The notes: generated from the letters alone by a model not told the origin. Positions 814 to 12,543 are shown, numbered from the stretch's first letter. The stretch: DNA of 64,000 bases from Candidatus Spyradenecus sp. (GCA_045651925.1 JAZRTJ010000084.1:12286-76285); one strand, 5' to 3'. Program-made: numbers and translations.

Positions 814-908
814 GGTTGCTTTTCTCTCTATATTATGAATTGGGAAAATGAAATGACAAAGCGCTCTTTCCCGCAAGCGGAAAGTGAGGCGCAGGCGGGG
901 CCTGCGCC

Positions 909-1397
909 AATTGCAAATTTCGAATTCCGAATGATTAAGGGGTTTTCTGCGAAAAAGATTAAAGATTAGAGGTTAAAGATTAAAGAAGCTCCGGCGAAAC
1001 CGGAGATAGGTAACACTCAAAAGGGAATGGGTAGTGGATAACTGATAACGGATAGGTTTCTCTGCAAAAAAGATTAAAGGTTATGAAACTAGCCCCGTTT
1101 GGAGGGGTGGAAAGAAGTTTTAAAGAGAGGGGCATTACGTGCTTTGGGGTGATTCCCGTGGAACGGGAATACATAGGATAACCGCGGGTGCAGGCAATAG
1201 CCGCAACCCGCGGAAGGGCGCCAGCGAATCATGCGCCGCTAAACGACCTCGATATGTCCCCGGCCTACCTGCGGCGCAATGGAACAAGCTACAAAAAGCG
1301 CTCCCGCCAACCAGCGCTCTTTAAGCTTTAAGCCCTAATCTTTAAGCTTTCTATCCGCTATCACTCTTTCGCGGTACGCATTCGAAATTCGCTATTC
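909..1397. repeat. Cluster of heptamer short-tandem-repeat arrays in nested inverted pairs
   Basis: GAATTCC-type at 909-935 (+) and 1377-1397 (-); AAAGATT/AAAGCTT-type at about 954-985 (+) and 1320-1350 (-); GATAAC-type at about 1037-1055 (+) and 1341-1354 (-). Confidence 0.7.
1082..1287 (+). repeat. Multi-hairpin dispersed repeat (REP/REPIN-like or ncRNA), copy 1, modules A-B-C
   Basis: Closely similar in inverted orientation to 5757-5960. Modules B-C also occur at 5591-5706 and module C at 5301-5356. Stems are CCGCGGGT..ACCCGCGG and TGCGCCGC..GCGGCGCA. Confidence 0.85.
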
Positions 1398-1561
1398 ATG
1401 CCGAAGGCACCGGACCGGTCCGAAAAAATATCCTTTATTTTAAGCGCCCGCATAAGCGTCACCGAAATTTTTTATTGACCTCAATTTTTCGCAGCGCGAC
1501 AATTTTTTCAAAATTACCCATACCCTTTTTTACCCAAGTTTTAAATTATTACTCGTTTGCT

Positions 1562-4500
1562 ATGAAGACTTCAAAATTCTTCTTCTCTACCCTCATTGCT
1601 GCCGCAGCCATGACCGCAAGTGCGTATGCGGCTACGTGGGAAACCGACGAAAGCGGCCTTCCTGTTGTTGTAGACTTCAGTGAAAAATCGGCCAATGCGT
1701 CTTCGGGGCAGCAAACCATCGACGCGGATACGGTATTTACCTTTAATACTGCAGGGAATGTTGGCATTGCTAATAATGACCCTACACAGGGATTTAATAC
1801 CAATGGGTACAATTTAGCTCTTCAAGCTGACGAGAAGGAGATGTTTATCAATGGAACGTTTCTTGGGAACGGGAATATCTACTTTGCGTCCGGACGTTGG
1901 CAGGCGCAAGTATCTGATACGTTTGTAAATATTGGAGAAATTTATGTCTCGGGAAATACTCAACTTCAGTTGAGTAACACGCAGGCGATTTCTGGAAATG
2001 TCTTTCTTGGAACAACGACATTTAAAACAGACGGAAATCTTACCAATGCGGCACTTCGTGTTGGTGTTGGAGGTCGCCACGTGAATGTGACTCTTGACGG
2101 GACAACAACGATTTTTTCTGATACGAAGATTGGTTATCAAAACTCTTCCACGCTAAATATTTCGAATCTCACGGGAACGGGTAATATTGCGACGGGGATT
2201 TGGGACGGGAATAATACGTTAAATATTAACGGCTCTACGAGCTTTACAGGTTCGATTGATGTTGTTTCCGGTATTACTTTGAACTGGAAGGATGCAAATG
2301 GTAGTTTTGGCGGACTTTCTGGGAACGGGGCTGTTGGCGGTGGAAGCATGCTTAATCTTGTGCTAGGAGATGGGGTAAGAAAAGACTTTTCTGGGACTGT
2401 TGGGGGCGTGGATTCCGCAGTTAATCTGAATATTTCCGGTACGGGAACACAGGCGTTTACGGGAGCAACTTATTTGGGCGAGGTTGCCAATTCTGGGAAT
2501 TTGGTACTTGGTGGGACTGTTTCGCTTTCTTCTGCGATTACCAATACGGGAATAATCACCCTCAATGATGCTGTTATTTTTGATCTTGGACAATTCAATC
2601 TCGCTTCTGGGGATAATGTGATTATTTCAGGAGGCACAATTACTCCCGGTTTGGGGAAGGGTAATTTCCAAAATATTGGCGTGATGCGCGGCGGGTCGTT
2701 TTCCGTTAATTCTACGACGTCGTCTCTTTCTCTCACACTTACGCAGGGCGTTGCCGGGACTCTCGCATGGAGTGGCGTAGCAGGTGCGGTGTGGAATACG
2801 AGCACGGATAATGACAGCGTCTGGACTCTTAGCGGAGGAGAAACTTCGTCTTTCTACTTTAAGGACAATGTTATTTTCGATGCTAGCGCGACCAACAAGA
2901 CAGTGAAGCTTGAGTCCGGAAATACGGTTACAGTGGGAACTGCTACGGTATCGGGAGGTCGATACATCTGGGATGTTCAGGGAGGAACGAAGCCTGCAGT
3001 TGTCTCTGGCTCTACGCTCACAATTGATGGTGGAGCGACGCTCCGTATTGGGAATGATACTACCGTCGCTGGCAATCGTGTGGAGCTTTCGTTTGACGAG
3101 ATCATTCTTGGAGGTGTTCTAGAGTACAACTCTCAAGGAACGACAACATGGTCGTCTCTCGAATTCAAGGAAGGAGGAAATTTGCATATTGTCGATGCGA
3201 CAGGGGGGACTCCGCAGTTGACGATTGATTCTGTTTCGGTTAGCGGAAATGCGACGATTACTTCTGCGGCAGATAAATCTCTCCAGATTAACGCTCTTTC
3301 TGGTGATAAGAATCTTACTGTTACGGGTGCGAATGCATGGGGAGAGCAGAAATTGATCTTGGGGAGCTTGTCGGACTATTCGGGTACATTGACACTGAAC
3401 GACGGAATATACGGGCTAGGTGTTAGTATCAACACCAAAGATATTGGAACCACGGCTAAAGTTGTTATCAACGACGGTGTTGTACTTGCTGCAACTTCTT
3501 CTGCTGGGCAAAACACAACGGTAGATATGTCCAACGTTTCTGGGACAGGGACAGTTTTGTTGAAGCTCAAAGCTGATAATGGTGCTGGGTTTAATCTTTC
3601 CAACTTTGCGGGTACGATTGAAGTTGATAATGCAGACGGGCAAGGGTCTGGTCGCTTGCAATTGAATACGTCAACCTTGAATACTTCTTCATTGATCAAA
3701 GTTCTCGATGGTGGGCAACTCGTATTTGATGATAATTCAAATAAGGATGTCTCCAACGATATTACGGTTTTAGCGAACTCGACGATTCATGTGAACACCG
3801 GTTGCTTGGGGACGCTTTCTGGGGCAATTAACGCCACGGGAACGGTTACCAAAGCAGGAGCAGGGACACTGACTCTCACGGGAGAAGCAAATATTGCGAA
3901 AATTGCTGTTGACACAGGGACACTGAATGTAGGCAATGGTGGCGTTTTGACTGTTACCGGTGACGATAATGGAACATCTGAAATTTCCGGCACCCTTAAT
4001 GTTACTGGCGGAGGAACTCTCAAGTTTGGAGGGCACGATGCGCTTGGGTATAACAACCGTAATGCGTCCGGAACGATTATCGCACAGGGAGCTTCCTCTG
4101 AAAAATTGGCTACAATCCTTTTCAATGATACAGGAAAGCTTACACTGTCCAAAGAAATTCAGCTGAAAGGAAACACTGTTGTCAAAAATGCGGACGGGAA
4201 TTCAAATAGCATCAAGGCATTTGGAGGTCAGTTTACGGCATCGGGAGCGAACAATACAATTTCCACTGCGTTTGATATGTCCGAAGGGAAGGTTGATTTC
4301 AGTGTCGTCCAAGATGGTTCTCTGACGGTTGACAGCGTGATTTCCGGAAGTAAATCATGGGACAAACTTGGTGATGGAACGTTGACGCTCAAGGGGAATA
4401 ATTCCTCTTATTCGGGAACAATCACTGTTTCTGCGGGAACGGTGGTTGCGGCTCATAAGAATGCACTCGGAAGCGGGAATGTGACGGTGGGTGTGGAAAA

Positions 4501-5221
4501 GATTTCTAGTGACTTGCCGTATGCTCCGACGTTGAATCTTGGTGCCGGAGAGGTCGTGGTCAATAATTTGAATGGTTATGGTGACATCTGCTTGGCTGAC
4601 GGGGTGGATGCTTCGACGCTAACGATTAATTCCACTGTAGATACTTCTTTTGAAGGGAATATTTATCCCGCCGCGTTGGATGATAGCAGTACGATCGGGC
4701 GTACGATATCGCTTGTCAAGACCGGTGACAAAGCGTTTACGCTTAACAGTATGTTTAATGCGTTAGATTTGGTTACGGTTAAAGAGGGGACATTGGCACT
4801 GACTGCGTATTCTGTCGGGTACGGATCAAGTGTCGCAGACGTGAAAGTCGAAGGCGGAGCAACACTGAAGGTCATTACGGGGGGAGTCACGACTGGCGCT
4901 CTCAGTTTTGATGCGGGAGCAACATTCGCACTTGATCTTACTTTATTTGGAGTTTCGTCCGACGCAGAGGAAACGCCTTTGTGCATCATCAGTGCGTCTG
5001 CGCTTACTTTCAATGGGGTGGACGCGGCTACAATGAGCTCTGAGGAAATTGACAGCTATCTTGATTTGGATAATTCCGCTCTTGGGCTTTACGCGAATAA
5101 TCGTGTGTGGTCATATGCTGACGGGATGCTGACGCTTGCGATTCCGGAGCCGTCGATGTTCGGCTTGTTGGCGGGCTTGGGTGCGTTGGCTTTGGCCGGT
5201 ACGCGTCGCCGCCGCAAGTAA
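1562..5221 (+). CDS. Large secreted adhesin-like protein with autotransporter-associated beta-strand repeats and a C-terminal PEP-CTERM sorting signal
   Basis: Signal peptide MKTSKFFFSTLIAAAAMTASAYA; repeats TKAGAGTLTLTG and KLGDGTLTLKGNNSSYSGTITVSAGT; C-terminus IPEPSMFGLLAGLGALALAGTRRRRK. Visibly AT-richer than flanking genes. Confidence 0.9.
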   Translation: MKTSKFFFSTLIAAAAMTASAYAATWETDESGLPVVVDFSEKSANASSGQQTIDADTVFTFNTAGNVGIANNDPTQGFNTNGYNLALQADEKEMFINGTFLGNGNIYFASGRWQAQVSDTFVNIGEIYVSGNTQLQLSNTQAISGNVFLGTTTFKTDGNLTNAALRVGVGGRHVNVTLDGTTTIFSDTKIGYQNSSTLNISNLTGTGNIATGIWDGNNTLNINGSTSFTGSIDVVSGITLNWKDANGSFGGLSGNGAVGGGSMLNLVLGDGVRKDFSGTVGGVDSAVNLNISGTGTQAFTGATYLGEVANSGNLVLGGTVSLSSAITNTGIITLNDAVIFDLGQFNLASGDNVIISGGTITPGLGKGNFQNIGVMRGGSFSVNSTTSSLSLTLTQGVAGTLAWSGVAGAVWNTSTDNDSVWTLSGGETSSFYFKDNVIFDASATNKTVKLESGNTVTVGTATVSGGRYIWDVQGGTKPAVVSGSTLTIDGGATLRIGNDTTVAGNRVELSFDEIILGGVLEYNSQGTTTWSSLEFKEGGNLHIVDATGGTPQLTIDSVSVSGNATITSAADKSLQINALSGDKNLTVTGANAWGEQKLILGSLSDYSGTLTLNDGIYGLGVSINTKDIGTTAKVVINDGVVLAATSSAGQNTTVDMSNVSGTGTVLLKLKADNGAGFNLSNFAGTIEVDNADGQGSGRLQLNTSTLNTSSLIKVLDGGQLVFDDNSNKDVSNDITVLANSTIHVNTGCLGTLSGAINATGTVTKAGAGTLTLTGEANIAKIAVDTGTLNVGNGGVLTVTGDDNGTSEISGTLNVTGGGTLKFGGHDALGYNNRNASGTIIAQGASSEKLATILFNDTGKLTLSKEIQLKGNTVVKNADGNSNSIKAFGGQFTASGANNTISTAFDMSEGKVDFSVVQDGSLTVDSVISGSKSWDKLGDGTLTLKGNNSSYSGTITVSAGTVVAAHKNALGSGNVTVGVEKISSDLPYAPTLNLGAGEVVVNNLNGYGDICLADGVDASTLTINSTVDTSFEGNIYPAALDDSSTIGRTISLVKTGDKAFTLNSMFNALDLVTVKEGTLALTAYSVGYGSSVADVKVEGGATLKVITGGVTTGALSFDAGATFALDLTLFGVSSDAEETPLCIISASALTFNGVDAATMSSEEIDSYLDLDNSALGLYANNRVWSYADGMLTLAIPEPSMFGLLAGLGALALAGTRRRRK

Positions 5222-5227
5222 GAGAAT

Positions 5228-5356
5228 AAAGCTTAAAGTTTAGGGCTTAAGGCTTAAAGAAGGGCGCTCTCGCTGTTTGGCGGGAGCGCTTTTTTGTGGC
5301 TTGTTTCATTGCGTCGCAGGCGGGTCAGGGCGTGCCTGAGTCCGTGAGCGGCGCAC
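5228..5356 (-). repeat. Inverted copy of 1230-1350 (module C, terminator-like hairpin and heptamer array)
   Basis: Its reverse complement GTGCGCCGC..CTGCGACGCAATGAAACAAGCCACAAAAAAGCGCTCCCGCCAAACAGCG..TTTAAGCCTTAAGCCCTAAACTTTAAGCTTT aligns with 1231-1350. It includes the probable terminator GGGCGCTCTCGC..GCGGGAGCGCTTTTTT at 5262-5295. Confidence 0.8.
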
Positions 5357-5505
5357 GGCCTCGAAGAGTCAATTGCGAATAGCGAATTCCGAATGCGTAC
5401 CACGAAAGTGATAACTGATAGTTGATAACGCATAAGTAAAAAGGCCGCAGCGCGAATAAGCTCCAAGCATCAAACATCGAGCATCAAGACAGCGTTAATC
5501 ATTAA

Positions 5506-6037
5506 GGCTACCTCGAGAAATTCAGTTTTTAGGGCATTGTCCTAAATTCCCTTCTTTCCACCTGTCAGAATCTGTGCTCCGGAGGTGCACTACATTGGAT
5601 AACCGCGGGTGCAGGCAATAGCCGAAACCCGCGGACAGGCCTCCGGCCCCATGCGCCGCTAAGTGACTTCGATCGCTCTCCGACCTGCCTGCGGCGCAAT
5701 GGAACAGACAGAAAAGAAATTAAAGAGACTCCGGTTTTGGTAATATCCGTCCATATTGTTCCATGCGCCGCAGGAAAATCAAAGACGTAGCTATGTCTTC
5801 AAGCGGCGCTTCTTACCTTTGGCAAATCCGCGGGTTGCGGCTATTGCCTCCACCCGCGGTTATCCCATGTATTCCCGTTCCACGGGAATCACCCCAAAGC
5901 ACGTAATGTCCCTCTCTTTAAGACGTCTTTCCATCCCGCCAAACGGGGCTAGTTTCATACAAAAAAGAGCGTCTCGCTACCCCCGAGACGCTCTTTTTGT
6001 AATGGTTCCTCTAAAAAATGAATTTCTAGAGGTAGCC
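5506..6037. mobile_element. Non-autonomous MITE-like element, 532 bp, with 27-bp terminal inverted repeats and TTAA flanks
   Basis: Left TIR GGCTACCTCGAGAAATTCAGTTTTTAG (5506-5532) versus reverse complement of 6011-6037 GGCTACCTCTAGAAATTCATTTTTTAG, 2 mismatches. TTAA at 5502-5505 and 6038-6041. No convincing internal ORF. Confidence 0.7.
5591..5871. repeat. Inverted doublet of the B-C hairpin repeat (REPIN-like) inside the MITE
   Basis: TACATNGGATAACCGCGGG..GCGGCGCA(A)TGGAACA at 5591-5706 (+) and 5757-5871 (-), separated by about 50 nt. Confidence 0.8.
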
Positions 6038-6054
6038 TTAAGGGTTAAGACACG

Positions 6055-6093
6055 AAAAAAGCGTTCCCGTGAATTTCACGGGAACGCCTTTTT
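6055..6093. terminator. Bidirectional rho-independent terminator
   Basis: AAAAAAGCGTTCCCGTGAATTTCACGGGAACGCCTTTTTT, downstream of the toxin gene. Confidence 0.7.
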
Positions 6094-6109
6094 TGTGAGA
6101 AGGATGCGT

Positions 6110-6373
6110 TTAGTTATGTCCGTAATGTGTTTTACAGGAGATAATTTCGAGCGCGTCGGCGCTTGAGCGATAGACGATTCGGTCTCTGCTGTTTATGCGG
6201 CGGCTCCAATAGCCGGCTAAGTCATGTTTGAGCGGCTCGGGTTTTCCGTCTCCCTCATAGGGCGTTCTTACGCATTGTTTGATGAGACGCACAATTTTTT
6301 TGAAGGTCTTGGGGTCTATTTCATGCCACAGGGTAAATTCTTCCCATGCGGCATTGTGCCAGACAATTTTCAT
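6110..6373 (-). CDS. yoeB: Txe/YoeB family toxin
   Basis: MKIVW..AWEEF..W, PYEGDGKPEPLKHDLAGYWSRRINSRDRIVY and SCKTHY match YoeB motifs. Confidence 0.9.
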   Translation of the reverse strand: MKIVWHNAAWEEFTLWHEIDPKTFKKIVRLIKQCVRTPYEGDGKPEPLKHDLAGYWSRRINSRDRIVYRSSADALEIISCKTHYGHN

Positions 6374-6627
6374 AAATCTTCGAGCCGAGTTGTTCTGCGT
6401 TTGGCGGGAGTACGCATTTCAGCAATTCGCTTCTTGAGTTCATTGATATTTTCCGGGCTGTTAAACGGATCCGGGGCAGAAACAGAAAATGGAATTGCAC
6501 GATCTGCGAGGACGCGGTGGACGAAAATGCTGATTGCCGCGGAGGGGGTTATGCCGATTTCACGGCAAATGGTATTGAATCCGTCTCGGGTTGTTTTATC
6601 GATACGAACTGAAATTGTTGTTTCCAT
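6370..6627 (-). CDS. RelB/DinJ family antitoxin
   Basis: METTISVRID..ICREIGITPSAAISIF....IPF ribbon-helix-helix pattern; 4-nt overlap upstream of the toxin. Confidence 0.85.
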   Translation of the reverse strand: METTISVRIDKTTRDGFNTICREIGITPSAAISIFVHRVLADRAIPFSVSAPDPFNSPENINELKKRIAEMRTPAKRRTTRLEDL

Positions 6628-6767
6628 AGATGTAATATAAAATCGCCCTATTGTATTACGTCAATTGTGTTTTGTATTTCATTGCCACCGCTTTCTTTTT
6701 CTGCTCTCGGTTGACAATGCCTATCTGTTTGGTATTGTTTTTCGGCATGAGACGAGACCTACACCCT

Positions 6768-7712
6768 ATGGCGTTGTGCAATACGGCGCGCCTCGGCTTG
6801 GCGGCAATGCTGTTGTCCGCTTCCGCGCTTACGGCTTTTGCCGCAGAGGCGCGTACGATTTTTGCTCCCGGCGTTACGGAGACTTCCGGTTGGTATGATG
6901 TGAATAAAAAGAGCACGACGAGTCTGGCGACGAAAGATTTTCTTTTCTGCTGGGGCGCGGCCGCTTCGAACATGGCCCAATATTGGCAGGATTGTTACGT
7001 GAAGTCCGGGCATGATCTTCCGCCAAACGTGCCGAACGGGACGGCCTCCGCCTTGGGCTACGAGCTCGGAATCTTTGACGTGTTTTTGAACAACTGGTCT
7101 TCCGAGCGCGGGGCGGATCCGTATGTCGGGCTCATGTGGTATTTCAGCGGCGGCAGCCATTCGATGACAAATTATGCGAAACCGACTGCGGGGACGGGCG
7201 GCTACTGGAAGGATTCCTATGCCGCATTGCAGAGCGATTTGGGTAATAATTTCATTCTTCCGGAAGTCGGCGGCTACTCGACTTGGGGCGCGTGGGCGAA
7301 CGATCGATCACGGACGGCGCTTGAAATTTTTTCCGAACAGGCTGTTTCCGTTTTGAAAACCGGGGTTGCGAGCATCGCCGTAAAAACGGCGACAATCCTC
7401 CATGCGGTAACGCTCTGGGGCGTTGAGGTGGATGCGCTGGGAATCGTTACGGCCGCTTATATTACGGATTCGGACGACGCGGGGAAGACCGGACAAATTT
7501 CCGGTTTGAGAAAATACTCGCTGACGACCGATAGCATGAATCGGACCGTTTCCCTTTTGGGCACGGATTACGGGACGGTGAATATTACCAACCTCTACGG
7601 TCTGACGGCGTATCCGATTCCGGAGCCGTCGGTGTTCGGGGTGTCGGCAGGCGTGCTTGCGCTCGGCTTGGCCTTGTCGCGGAGGAAACTCCGCCGGGCG
7701 CGGGTTGCTTAG
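6768..7712 (+). CDS. IdeS/Mac-1 family cysteine endopeptidase with PEP-CTERM signal
   Basis: GWYDVNK, CWGAAASN (catalytic Cys), HAVTLWG (His) and ITDSDD (Asp); C-terminal IPEPSVFG..LALSRRKLRR; N-terminal signal peptide. Confidence 0.75.
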   Translation: MALCNTARLGLAAMLLSASALTAFAAEARTIFAPGVTETSGWYDVNKKSTTSLATKDFLFCWGAAASNMAQYWQDCYVKSGHDLPPNVPNGTASALGYELGIFDVFLNNWSSERGADPYVGLMWYFSGGSHSMTNYAKPTAGTGGYWKDSYAALQSDLGNNFILPEVGGYSTWGAWANDRSRTALEIFSEQAVSVLKTGVASIAVKTATILHAVTLWGVEVDALGIVTAAYITDSDDAGKTGQISGLRKYSLTTDSMNRTVSLLGTDYGTVNITNLYGLTAYPIPEPSVFGVSAGVLALGLALSRRKLRRARVA

Positions 7713-11444: not shown

Positions 11445-11455
11445 CGAAATTCTTG

Positions 11456-11922
11456 AATCTCAAATTTCGAATTCCGAATCCCGAATGCAATGACGGCAAG
11501 AGATGACAATGTAATTGAGAAGAAATCTTTTGCCTTTGCGGTTCGAATCGTACGTCTTTGTCGTTTTTTGAGGGAAAAGAAAAAGGAATTTGTGATTTCG
11601 GATCAGCTATTGCGCGCGGGAACCTCCGTCGGAGCGAATGTCACGGAGGCCCAGGAAGCGTTTTCCGAGAAGGATTTTGTAGCCAAGCTTTCGATTGCTC
11701 GAAAAGAGTCCGCAGAAAGTGCCTACTGGATTCGCTTGCTGTTTGAGACGGAATATCTTTCGCAGGAGCAATTTGATTCGATTTACGGAGATGCCGTTGA
11801 GATTCGAAAGATTCTTTCGTCGATTGTATTGACCATTGAGAAAAAGCAAAAACGAAATAAAGACGATGACTCAGCCGTTGAATGAAACTGAATTCGGAAT
11901 TCGGAATTCGGAATTCGAGATT
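11456..11922. mobile_element. Candidate small mobile unit: four-helix-bundle gene bounded by 33-bp inverted heptamer arms
   Basis: Left arm AATCTC-AAATTTC-GAATTCC-GAATCCC-GAATGC (11456-11488). Reverse complement of the right arm is AATCTC-GAATTCC-GAATTCC-GAATTCC-GAATTC (11890-11922). It sits between queD and queE. Confidence 0.6.
11490..11885 (+). CDS. Four helix bundle protein (TIGR02436 / 23S-IVP / bAvd-like)
   Basis: KSFAFAVRIVRL, QLLRAGTSVGANVTEA, DFVAKLSIARKESAESAYWIRLL. Confidence 0.9.
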   Translation: MTARDDNVIEKKSFAFAVRIVRLCRFLREKKKEFVISDQLLRAGTSVGANVTEAQEAFSEKDFVAKLSIARKESAESAYWIRLLFETEYLSQEQFDSIYGDAVEIRKILSSIVLTIEKKQKRNKDDDSAVE

Positions 11923-12543
11923 GTGAAAAAAATCAAATACAGCGTTTTTGAATTTTTTCACAGTTTCCAGGGCGAAGGGGAGTATCTCGGGCGCTCGGCG
12001 TTTTTCATTCGCCTTTTCGGGTGCCCGATTCGTTGTCCGTGGTGTGATTCTGCGGGAACCTGGCAGAGCGACGGCGCCGCCGAGGTGAAGCGCCTGTCGG
12101 CCGCCGAGCTGGCGGAAACGGCCGCCGCGGCAAAGCCCGACTGCGTCGTCATCACCGGCGGCGAACCGACGATTCATGATCTGACGCCGCTTTGCGACGC
12201 CCTTCACGCAAAAGGCCTACGCGTTCACTTGGAAACCTGCGGCGCATTTCCGATTCGCGGCGATGTCGATTGGGTGACCTTGAGCCCGAAGCGCCAAAAG
12301 CTTCCGCTTGCCGAAAATTGGGCGCGTGCCCGCGAAATCAAAATCATCGTCGATACGCCCGACGCCATTGCGGAGTGGGCGGGAAAAATCGGTGAGCATT
12401 CCGCGAGCTCGATTTGGCTGCATCCCGAATGGTCACGCTCCGAAGATCCCGAAATTCTCGGAAAAATCGCCGAGTGGATTTGCGCGCATGGGGCTCCCTA
12501 CCGCGCCGGCTGGCAGCTTCATAAGCTTTTCAGGGTGAGGTAG
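11866..12543 (+). CDS. queE: 7-carboxy-7-deazaguanine synthase (radical SAM); start is either ATG 11866 or GTG 11923
   Basis: EFFHSFQGEG, CxxxCxWCD (CPIRCPWCD), VITGGEP, LETCG, TLSPK and QLHK motifs. Confidence 0.9.
   Translation: MTQPLNETEFGIRNSEFEIVKKIKYSVFEFFHSFQGEGEYLGRSAFFIRLFGCPIRCPWCDSAGTWQSDGAAEVKRLSAAELAETAAAAKPDCVVITGGEPTIHDLTPLCDALHAKGLRVHLETCGAFPIRGDVDWVTLSPKRQKLPLAENWARAREIKIIVDTPDAIAEWAGKIGEHSASSIWLHPEWSRSEDPEILGKIAEWICAHGAPYRAGWQLHKLFRVR

Follow-up and report, generated by a model that had tools for sequence, protein, structure and literature searches.

Is the heptamer-bordered stretch at positions 909-1397 a single element that inserts as one unit, the relic of such an element, or a patchwork of repeats? 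The locus lies in a 64,000-nucleotide stretch of DNA (the window, from whose first letter all positions are counted) of a Lentisphaerota bacterium from the ruminant gut. The sequencing runs with matching sequence are bovine or gut metagenomes, and the nearest public genomes are the MAGs 'Opitutales bacterium RGIG7497' and 'Candidatus Spyradenecus sp.'. The 489 bp in question form the core of a 748-bp divergent intergenic region, between an OmpA-family lipoprotein gene and the gene of a PEP-CTERM-anchored surface protein (Table 1). The original prediction described a non-coding unit bounded by the same inverted arms as a four-helix-bundle (4HB) gene farther along the window, and proposed either a hotspot at which heptamer-armed units repeatedly insert and lose their gene or a non-autonomous derivative carrying RNA-like cargo. 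We favor a different answer, to which we give a probability of roughly 0.55: the region would be a recombining mosaic of dispersed repeats around a small-RNA gene, and not one mobile element.

Table 1 Features of the 909-1397 locus, of the neighboring repeat island and of the 4HB unit (F1 to F4, heptamer families; a prime marks the inverted partner).
Feature	Position	Strand	Remark
OmpA-family lipoprotein gene (ompA)	813-256	-	PF00691
Predicted ompA promoter	859-832	-	
GC hairpin GGCGCAGGC-GGG-GCCTGCGCC, adjoining the left arm	888-908		Kept in orthologues L070 and L071
F1 left arm, GAATTCN-type	909-933	+	AATTGC AAATTTC GAATTCC GAATG
F2 array (AAAGATT)n	954-986	+	On the minus strand, T-rich tail of terminator 1005-989
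Intrinsic-terminator hairpin CTCCGGTTTCGCCGGAG	989-1005	-	Leftward transcription; upstream of the ompA promoter
F3 array	about 1036-1057	+	GGATAAC TGATAAC GGATAGG; cyclic permutation of TAACTGA
RNA copy A, 5' extension	1083-1149	+	1082-1214 94.7% identical to 5959-5827
RNA copy A, core	1150-1285	+	Covariance-model score 139.8 bits
Terminator hairpin AGCGCTCCCGCCAACCAGCGCT of RNA A	1293-1318	+	1268-1316 90% identical to the copy C tail
F2' array (CTTTAAG)n	about 1318-1350	+	T-rich tail of the RNA A terminator
Reversed composite-repeat copy	1351-1397	-	F3' 1351-1363, spacer 1364-1376, F1' 1377-1397
F1' right arm	1377-1397	-	Reverse complement GAATAGC GAATTTC GAATGCG
Predicted PEP-CTERM gene promoter	1475-1503	+	
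PEP-CTERM-anchored surface protein gene	1562-5221	+	1219 aa
Second island	5221-5430	-	On the minus strand: F3', spacer, F1' (5397-5371), short RNA C, terminator (5297-5262), F2' (5259-5227)
Short RNA copy C	~5345-5298	-	
F4 array (CAAGCAT)n	5457-5488	+	Family of the 4HB-unit arms in relative L173
RNA copy B	5571-5705	+	147.4 bits
RNA copy D with 5' extension	about 5758-5960	-	Convergent with B; 138.9 bits; 94.7% identical to A over 133 nt
4HB unit	11455-11923	+	Between queD and queE
4HB left arm	11455-11489		
4HB gene	11490-11885	+	PF05635/TIGR02436
4HB right arm	11889-11923		

All arrays of the three heptamer families announced for 909-1397 are present, in inverted pairs. Tandem Repeats Finder reports eight period-7 arrays in the 64 kb, all at three intergenic spots in the first 12 kb, and for the motif (GAATTCN)2, when up to 2 mismatches are allowed, 18 occurrences compare with an expectation of 6.9; this clustering and this excess argue that the arrays are not due to chance. 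The genome scan that the original prediction had proposed, run here on the window, finds arrays that are far from uniformly scattered. The outer arms, F1 and F1', are 17-18 nt long and 83-88% complementary, and their predicted likeness to the arms of the 4HB unit is borne out in sequence (914-932 and 11461-11479, in the 4HB left arm, agree at 19/19 nt), in polarity, with (GAATTCC)n on the left and (ATTCGNN)n on the right, and in span (489 bp vs ~467 bp). The 17-nt outer inverted match does not on its own exceed chance; its weight comes from the heptamer family, the register and the conservation in orthologues. The AAAGATT/CTTTAAG pair (F2 and F2') was correctly called, with 33 nt at 88% complementarity. 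For the GATAAC pair (F3), the plus-strand array exists as described, but the inverted partner of 1036-1054 is F3' at 1351-1363 (13 nt, 92%) and not 1341-1354, which was placed about 10 nt too far to the left; moreover, contrary to what had been proposed, the F3 pair does not nest with those of F1 and F2.

The F2 arrays are associated with hairpins. When read as (CTTTAAN)n, seven of the nine F2 arrays in the sequences analysed lie directly 3' of a GC-rich hairpin, and several of these hairpins have an A-run on the opposite side. Judged by sequence, they look like bidirectional or one-sided intrinsic terminators of which the array forms the T-rich tail. Since the left array would be the tail of the minus-strand terminator and the right array that of the RNA A terminator, the F2 'inverted pair' reads as two outward-facing terminators. 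With putative terminators on both strands between the outer arms, co-transcription of the two arms would be unlikely.

Between the arms, where the absence of a 4HB ORF was confirmed, lies the RNA-like cargo that had been predicted: a multi-copy structured RNA with covarying helices, which is followed by the terminator at 1293-1318. Its core is composed, in order, of a hairpin H1 with the consensus loop CGGAG or UGGAA, a single strand ACAUNGGAUAAC, a long hairpin H2 with the inner tip GGC-AAUA-GCC, a small and variable hairpin H3, a stem H4 (GCGCCGC paired with GCGGCGC) around a variable hairpin, and a tail AAUGGAAC. The 5' extension is common to copy A, copy D and the copies of two related loci (L071 and L007). 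Within the window, some 210 nt (1083-1290) come back at three other places, the copies B, C and D of Table 1. A pattern search found nine more copies in two sister MAGs. A covariance model built from 14 copies was run over 194 kb of the three sister species, the window included; the full-length copies number 19, with scores of 110-153 bits, and the short forms about five. The covariance-model search found no RNA copy in three more distant relatives.

Several observations support the modeled structure. Standard pairs occupy 94% of the cells and nine pairs show changes on both sides; H1 is completely replaced, as a block, in three copies, and a G-C to A-U change occurs in four copies at the H2 tip (also listed as helix 3). 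On four of five measures only 0-1 of 500 shuffles reach the observed value, against 32 of 500 for the further pair types, and pairing falls to 30-48% when the 3' partners are slid. G-U cells outnumber A-C cells (24 vs 11), which favors the modeled strand. The outer eight H2 pairs are invariant and hence uninformative either way, and the covariation comes from closely related copies. Altogether, the compensatory changes give the putative conserved secondary structure moderate, although not conclusive, support.

As to expression, a terminator hairpin with a T-rich tail lies downstream of copy A and likewise of copy C, and a search for a consensus promoter of the RNA found none; a conserved TATGAAAC, with which the 5' extension opens, might be read as a putative promoter element. 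A metatranscriptome contig of a paralogous copy has a depth of 8.5 as compared to ~2 for ompA, in unstranded and shallow data, a weak hint that the RNA may be transcribed. The genes that adjoin the RNA copies are unrelated to one another, and from their N-termini we take them to be groEL, purH and mraY. Since the neighbors are unrelated and terminators follow the RNA, we reject a cis-regulatory leader; because these neighbors would be housekeeping genes with nothing in common, a trans-acting or protein-binding small RNA is presumed.

The family appears to be undescribed; it is a candidate for a new family of structured RNAs, limited to a narrow clade of gut Lentisphaerota. Rfam 15 contains no family that matches at the gathering threshold, the best matches in 800-1600 having E = 4-9, and ARAGORN together with Rfam (E up to 10) yields nothing in the 909-1397 region. 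A degenerate pattern run over 596 Gb of genomes for wider homologues gave 58 matches, a number consistent with chance; the one Victivallales match that was examined (L012) is apparently coding sequence, lacks the RNA core and was taken as a chance match. No RNA match was found in viral contigs. Two further possibilities were considered and rejected. A 32-codon ORF at 1083-1181 does not behave as coding sequence, since copies A, D and that of L071 differ mostly non-synonymously in it and the L007 copy has an in-frame stop. A guide-like role of the variable loops was dropped as well, the longest matches or complements elsewhere in the window being 11-12 nt, at chance level. As a side observation, a 136-aa ORF without a Pfam match (5756-6166) overlaps RNA copy D.

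The same modules reappear in other orders and orientations at other intergenic sites. A composite repeat, in the order F1 array, spacer TACCRCGAAAG, F3 array, hairpin and CAAGCAT (F4) array, is found at 5371-5488 of the window and at 4630-4746 of L007, and twice in L071; shorter forms occur at L001 2308-2376 and at the right end of 909-1397, where 1366-1397 is 93.8% identical to 5408-5377. This composite repeat mostly occurs without an inverted partner. GAATTCN and TAACTGA-type arrays recur elsewhere as components of such larger composites. ORF-less inverted pairs of the same array family also exist elsewhere, for example at L001 419-590 with a 115-nt interior, and ORF-less inverted array pairs only 18-32 nt apart are seen in unrelated lineages.

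Comparison with relatives is informative about what changes at this locus. With the OmpA protein as query, the same locus was retrieved from five genomes. The two closest have OmpA proteins 95% identical (L070, RGIG7497) and 92% identical (L071, Spyradenecus sp.) to that of the window, and both keep the two flanks and the left arm, as well as a same-orientation RNA copy at the orthologous site; in both, the left arm is exactly one heptamer longer. L071 has the same outer shell as the window (F1, F2-terminator, interior, terminator-F2', F3' and F1'), and in its interior a D-type full RNA is followed by reversed F4, F3 and F1 arrays and then by a C-type short RNA. In L070 the interior is different and holds a single RNA copy, which comes after an F1 array; the right arm is absent. 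In the three more distant species another gene closely precedes ompA, and in 30 kb from these species neither arrays nor RNA copies were found. The predicted hotspot is therefore real in the sense that three species with OmpA proteins 92-95% identical carry different interiors between conserved flanks. The alignment with relatives nevertheless gives no support to the proposal that armed units insert here: relatives keep both flanks and the left arm around a different interior, and the events that can be reconstructed read as slippage and recombination among repeats.

Copy A itself bears on the latter. Its 5' part is 94.7% identical to copy D and its 3' tail is 90% identical to copy C. Given this D-type 5' part and C-type 3' part, and given that L071 has both types, copy A would be best explained as a chimera produced by a deletion through recombination between tandem D-type and C-type paralogues.

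Copy number in the metagenome X1, the richest in this organism, separates the interior from the arms. Depth is 130-230 over the flanking genes and 1000-2900 over 961-1360, with 327 at the left arm and 97 at the right arm. Relative to the flanks, this amounts to ~6-17x for the interior modules and ~0.5-2x for the arms. The interior modules are thus present at ~6-17 copies, or are common to co-resident relatives, and neither the arms nor the whole unit is amplified. A second copy of the whole 909-1397 unit was not found in 194 kb of related sequence, in which only parts recur. The claim that 909-1397 inserts as one unit finds no support in these data: whole-unit copies were not found, the arms are unamplified and the right arm belongs to a composite repeat. 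Metagenome contigs break at module borders; contig 'joints' that could have been alleles of 909-1397 were set aside, as they stem from paralogous module arrangements. We also note that the one public contig encoding an identical OmpA protein breaks off at the border of the repeat region, 220 bp upstream of ompA.

Because the interior is amplified and the arms are not, and because the orthologues keep the flanks and the left arm around different interiors, we favor a mosaic over a transposon-like unit. In the mechanism that we propose, the functional centre would be a structured small RNA of ~135-210 nt, directed rightward and ended by its own intrinsic terminator. A second terminator, directed leftward, would shield the ompA promoter. 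Of the outer GAATTCN arrays, the right one lies within the composite repeat and the left one beside the hairpin upstream of ompA; both are probably solo copies of a family which, by analogy, would form the RNase III-type closing stem of the resident 4HB cassette. Array length changes by 7-nt slippage, as the one-heptamer difference between species shows, and the interior would be remodeled by homologous recombination between repeat copies. Against such a mosaic stand the symmetry of the outer shell, which is kept in two of the three species, and the polarity and near-equal span, which are those of a discrete armed unit; the closing stem predicted between the arms (see below) and the ORF-less inverted pairs found elsewhere also count against it.

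This last objection calls for a closer look at the 4HB unit. Its arms are 33 nt long and complementary at 29/33 positions, with a predicted closing stem of ~31 bp (z = -3.5). An orthologous unit with F1-type arms is found in L068, L177 and L178, and one with arms of the CAAGCAT (F4) family in L173, while in L174 and L175 queD and queE are adjacent (23 and 84 nt apart) without a 4HB unit. The predicted presence/absence polymorphism is thus seen for the 4HB unit itself, at the queD-queE junction. A profile search retrieved 80 metagenomic 4HB loci, of which 70 have both flanks. At most loci, tandem heptamers flank the gene on either side within ~150 nt; the repeat unit varies from locus to locus, and the two arms of each locus are reverse complements. 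An inverted match score of at least 14 is reached by 60 of the 70 loci, compared to 13 of 70 in the direct-orientation control, and 61 same-family inverted pairs enclose a 4HB gene. Inverted heptamer arms are a rule for 4HB genes. That the arm sequence drifts as complementarity is retained argues for pairing rather than for a sequence-specific binding protein.

The rule has a defined reach. About 10 of 18 loci in viral contigs have arms, the most distant, Avd-like proteins lack them, and of the 20 4HB loci checked none is located in rRNA. In L180 and L181, different genes come after the same unit and left flank, the synteny stopping exactly at the end of the right arm. DUF4391 was considered as an alternative cargo (L088) and rejected, since the arm polarity places it between two units and not inside one; inverted pairs around Bro-N (L134) and an HsdS fragment (L084) were left out of the alternative-cargo count. 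We found no paper that states a general heptamer-arm/4HB rule in the searchable literature, and one may exist outside it.

The best-surviving rival, which we nevertheless regard as doubtful, starts from this rule. In it, 909-1397 would be an ORF-less derivative of an IVS-like 4HB cassette that has lost its gene and whose centre was later invaded by modules of the terminator, GATAAC and RNA types; base pairing of the arms, in RNA or in single-stranded DNA, would have been retained and would offer a substrate to RNase III or to recombination. The family, register, polarity and span of the arms all match the 4HB unit, inverted heptamer arms are the rule at 4HB loci (60/70 against 13/70), and the 4HB unit is gained or lost at the queD-queE junction. 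Within the same clade, moreover, the F1 and F4 families serve as 4HB arms and also occur at ORF-less places. In Coxiella the intervening-sequence ORF decays and the RNA stem stays (PMC4990558), and at 909-1397 a closing F1:F1' stem of ~16 bp is predicted in both the minimum-energy and centroid folds (z = -1.6). However, a lost 4HB gene, as originally predicted, has left no remnant here: a six-frame hmmsearch of 909-1397 for PF05635, with all HMMER filters off, gave no match (positive control, 3e-62), and in a blastn against 4HB units only the arms match. The arms are also short (17-18 nt with mismatches, as opposed to 33 nt with 29/33 in the 4HB unit), terminators lie on both strands between them, the right arm sits in a composite repeat that is unpaired elsewhere, and L070 does without it. 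The missing coding remnant, the short arms, the weak stem, the terminators, the composite right arm and L070 are the reasons why we rank the mosaic first and the relic of a cassette second.

A broader and still more tentative proposal would extend the arm rule to other lineages. Inverted heptamer arms would mark widespread IVS-like cassettes, mostly outside rRNA and usually with a PF05635 gene, and 909-1397 would be one that carries a small-RNA cargo; the many intergenic heptamer arrays seen in Cyanobacteria, Bacteroidota, Beggiatoaceae and Lentisphaerota would represent paired or solo arms of such cassettes, which the pentameric 4HB protein might recognise or RNase III might cut.

The resemblance to 23S intervening sequences (IVS) is what both of these proposals draw on. 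Those with an S23p ORF, in Coxiella burnetii and Leptospira, measure ~430-490 nt and have terminal inverted repeats and a long stem, of at least 20 bp; many other intervening sequences have no such ORF. The Coxiella burnetii element, the closest precedent and the only one that we found in the searchable literature, is 428 nt long with an S23p ORF and a 28-bp terminal stem, which is cut by RNase III in vitro; its 5' arm holds two to three tandem GACAGAT heptamers, in strain-dependent number, and the element is regarded as selfish, with an ORF that can decay (PMC4990558). All of these sequence features are common to the 4HB unit at 11455-11923. The 909-1397 region shares the tandem, variable-number heptamers in an arm, the arm family, the polarity and the span. 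It differs in having no ORF and much weaker arms, in carrying terminators on both strands and an unrelated RNA gene, and in its location: the 64-kb window contains no rRNA, and 909-1397 lies between ompA and the PEP-CTERM gene instead of in 23S helix 25/45.

Alternatively, the outer arrays could be cis-regulatory sites of two divergent promoters, inverted only since the flanking genes diverge, an explanation that we consider unlikely. In the reading direction ...CATTCG GAATTCG..., the array would be a marker of the region upstream of transcription units. It does lie upstream of the predicted promoters of ompA and of the PEP-CTERM gene, at least six RNA copies have it directly upstream at a constant distance, and it immediately precedes the queE start codon; TAACTGA arrays near start codons have likewise been proposed as regulator-binding sites (PMC4679880). 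The fixed distance to the RNA copies, however, may reflect joint duplication as one module. The 4HB loci are harder to reconcile with such sites, given that their heptamers vary freely across lineages as the arms stay complementary, and that the 4HB unit has its left arm toward the end of queD and not toward a promoter.

Finally, a MITE-like non-autonomous transposon that moves as one piece, its terminal inverted repeats being the heptamer arms and its passenger the RNA, would fit the inverted ends, the non-coding content, the many repeats of the genome and the contig breaks at the region, but it is very improbable given that 194 kb of related sequence holds no second whole-unit copy, that the interior modules and not the arms are amplified in depth, that orthologues share the site and the arms around different interiors, and that there is no target-site duplication, the flanks ...CTGCGCC (...GCCTGCGCC) and CATGCCG... 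(CATGCCGAAGG...) having no common direct repeat.

Returning to the mosaic, we find that 909-1397 combines known kinds of element: intergenic heptamer repeats, IVS-type arms and a small-RNA gene. TAACTGA repeats are known in Beggiatoaceae, Cyanobacteria and Bacteroidetes (PMC4679880), and the locus resembles the cyanobacterial STRR/TAACTGA loci in its intergenic arrays of two to six heptamers, its mixed families and its 7-nt indels; its GATAAC array, as a rotation of TAACTGA, contains that motif (PMC4679880). The reports on those repeats describe direct repeats, mostly just upstream of start codons (PMC4679880), without inverted pairs, links to terminators or 4HB genes, or an embedded RNA gene, and the phylum here is Lentisphaerota.

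Bacterial interspersed mosaic elements (BIMEs), built from REP sequences in enterobacteria, are intergenic motif mosaics of variable order and orientation, often near terminators, which occur in many copies and act as substrates of recombination. The 909-1397 region is similar in that the same short modules are recombined in varied order and orientation, at 6-17x module depth; its modules are tandem heptamers and a 135-nt structured RNA rather than 35-nt REP palindromes, and they are not REP-like. Multi-copy bacterial small-RNA families, for their part, occur as several paralogues per genome, placed in intergenic regions that are unrelated; their core structure is conserved, their peripheral hairpins vary and each copy has a terminator of its own. 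The present family differs from these in having copies within repeat mosaics, truncated forms and no Rfam match, and it looks more like a dispersed repeat than like a stable small-RNA regulon.

To our knowledge, intergenic tandem heptamers (STRR, TAACTGA) have been catalogued for decades without a mechanism, and we know of no function for PF05635, the very large family of the '23S rRNA intervening sequence protein', outside diversity-generating retroelements. The complementary arms around 4HB genes in most of the loci examined link the two, and they turn an old descriptive puzzle into a testable one, in terms of RNase III cutting of the stem, 4HB binding of the arrays and solo arms elsewhere. 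This link is the more surprising result, and it belongs mainly to the unit at 11455-11923. What 909-1397 adds is a candidate RNA family, and a locus that shows closely related species shuffling such arrays together with terminators and RNA genes. A last, minor observation concerns its left edge: on the minus strand, the left arm and the hairpin at 888-908 read as a GAATTCN array followed by a hairpin, the same arrangement as in the leaders of the RNA copies.

Inverted tandem heptamer arrays on both sides are the rule for four-helix-bundle (4HB) genes of the PF05635/TIGR02436 type, as seen in our survey of 80 metagenome loci (L075-L154) and a set of viral contigs (L155-L172). The arm sequence differs from locus to locus, with mostly AATT-containing units, and the complementarity between the two arms is kept. 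A score of at least 14 was reached in 60 of 70 4HB loci, versus 13 of 70 in the direct-orientation control. None of the 20 4HB loci checked for an rRNA location was found there.

The 4HB unit at the queD-queE junction is present in some relatives, and the junction is empty in others (Table). In the occupied contig L173, the unit sits at the same site with CAAGCAT-type arms in place of the GAATTCN-type. Two further contigs, L180 and L181, have one 4HB unit and its left flank in common, and their synteny stops exactly where the right heptamer arm ends (about 1869-1905); beyond this arm, one contig continues with cysS and the other with a gene of ParA-like type that is encoded on the opposite strand. 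Inverted pairs of a single heptamer family also occur without any ORF, either adjoining 4HB units or standing alone. Their interiors span only 18-115 nt, and they would be expected to form plain hairpins.

Coordinates of arrays, modules and neighboring genes
Feature	Location	Strand	Remark
queD-queE junction	L173 3030-3540		with 4HB unit
queD-queE junction	L174 3007-3031		empty
queD-queE junction	L175 2929-3014		empty
ORF-less inverted heptamer pair	L097 1850-1996		
ORF-less inverted heptamer pair	L157 614-949		
ORF-less inverted heptamer pair	L142 504-563		
ORF-less inverted heptamer pair	L001 419-590		
CCTCTAGAAATTCGTTTTTTAGAGG-type palindrome	window 5510-5535 and 6008-6032		also L002, L004-L008
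Alternative H4 pairing	L007 3190-3235		
Alternative H4 pairing	L005 6391-6300	-	
YoeB-like toxin (PF06769, 2e-31) and RelB antitoxin (PF04221) pair	window 6113-6627	-	
Mac-1 (IdeS-like cysteine protease) domain protein (PF09028, 8e-13)	window 6651-7712	+	
136-aa ORF	window 5756-6166		overlap with copy D of the RNA and with two terminators

A metatranscriptome contig of about 1.9 kb (runs X28 and X29), matched to window 954-1056, joins an AAAGATT array to a GATAAC array near one end and has a depth of 36-45 versus an organism background of about 2; arrays of these kinds are therefore carried in at least one abundant RNA transcribed from a paralogous locus.

Palindromes of the form CCTCTAGAAATTCGTTTTTTAGAGG make up a further dispersed module and are often neighbors of copies of the candidate small-RNA family. 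In some of these copies, the 3′ strand of stem H4 (GCGGCGCAAT) can pair instead with ATTGCGCCGC, which lies downstream and has T's after it. This alternative terminator hairpin is reminiscent of an attenuator, and it is inconsistent from copy to copy. In contig L007, a non-coding island of 2.7 kb is dense with arrays and also holds four copies of the RNA; within it, a stretch at about 3560-3950 (+) ends in ...GGGGTTCGACTCCCCTCATCTCCACCA and, judged from its sequence, resembles the 3′ terminus of a candidate tmRNA gene.

The 136-aa ORF at the second repeat island has no Pfam match and is probably not a gene. The YoeB-like/RelB pair directly adjoins this island, and the C-terminus of the nearby Mac-1-domain protein looks, by eye, like a PEP-CTERM-type anchor.
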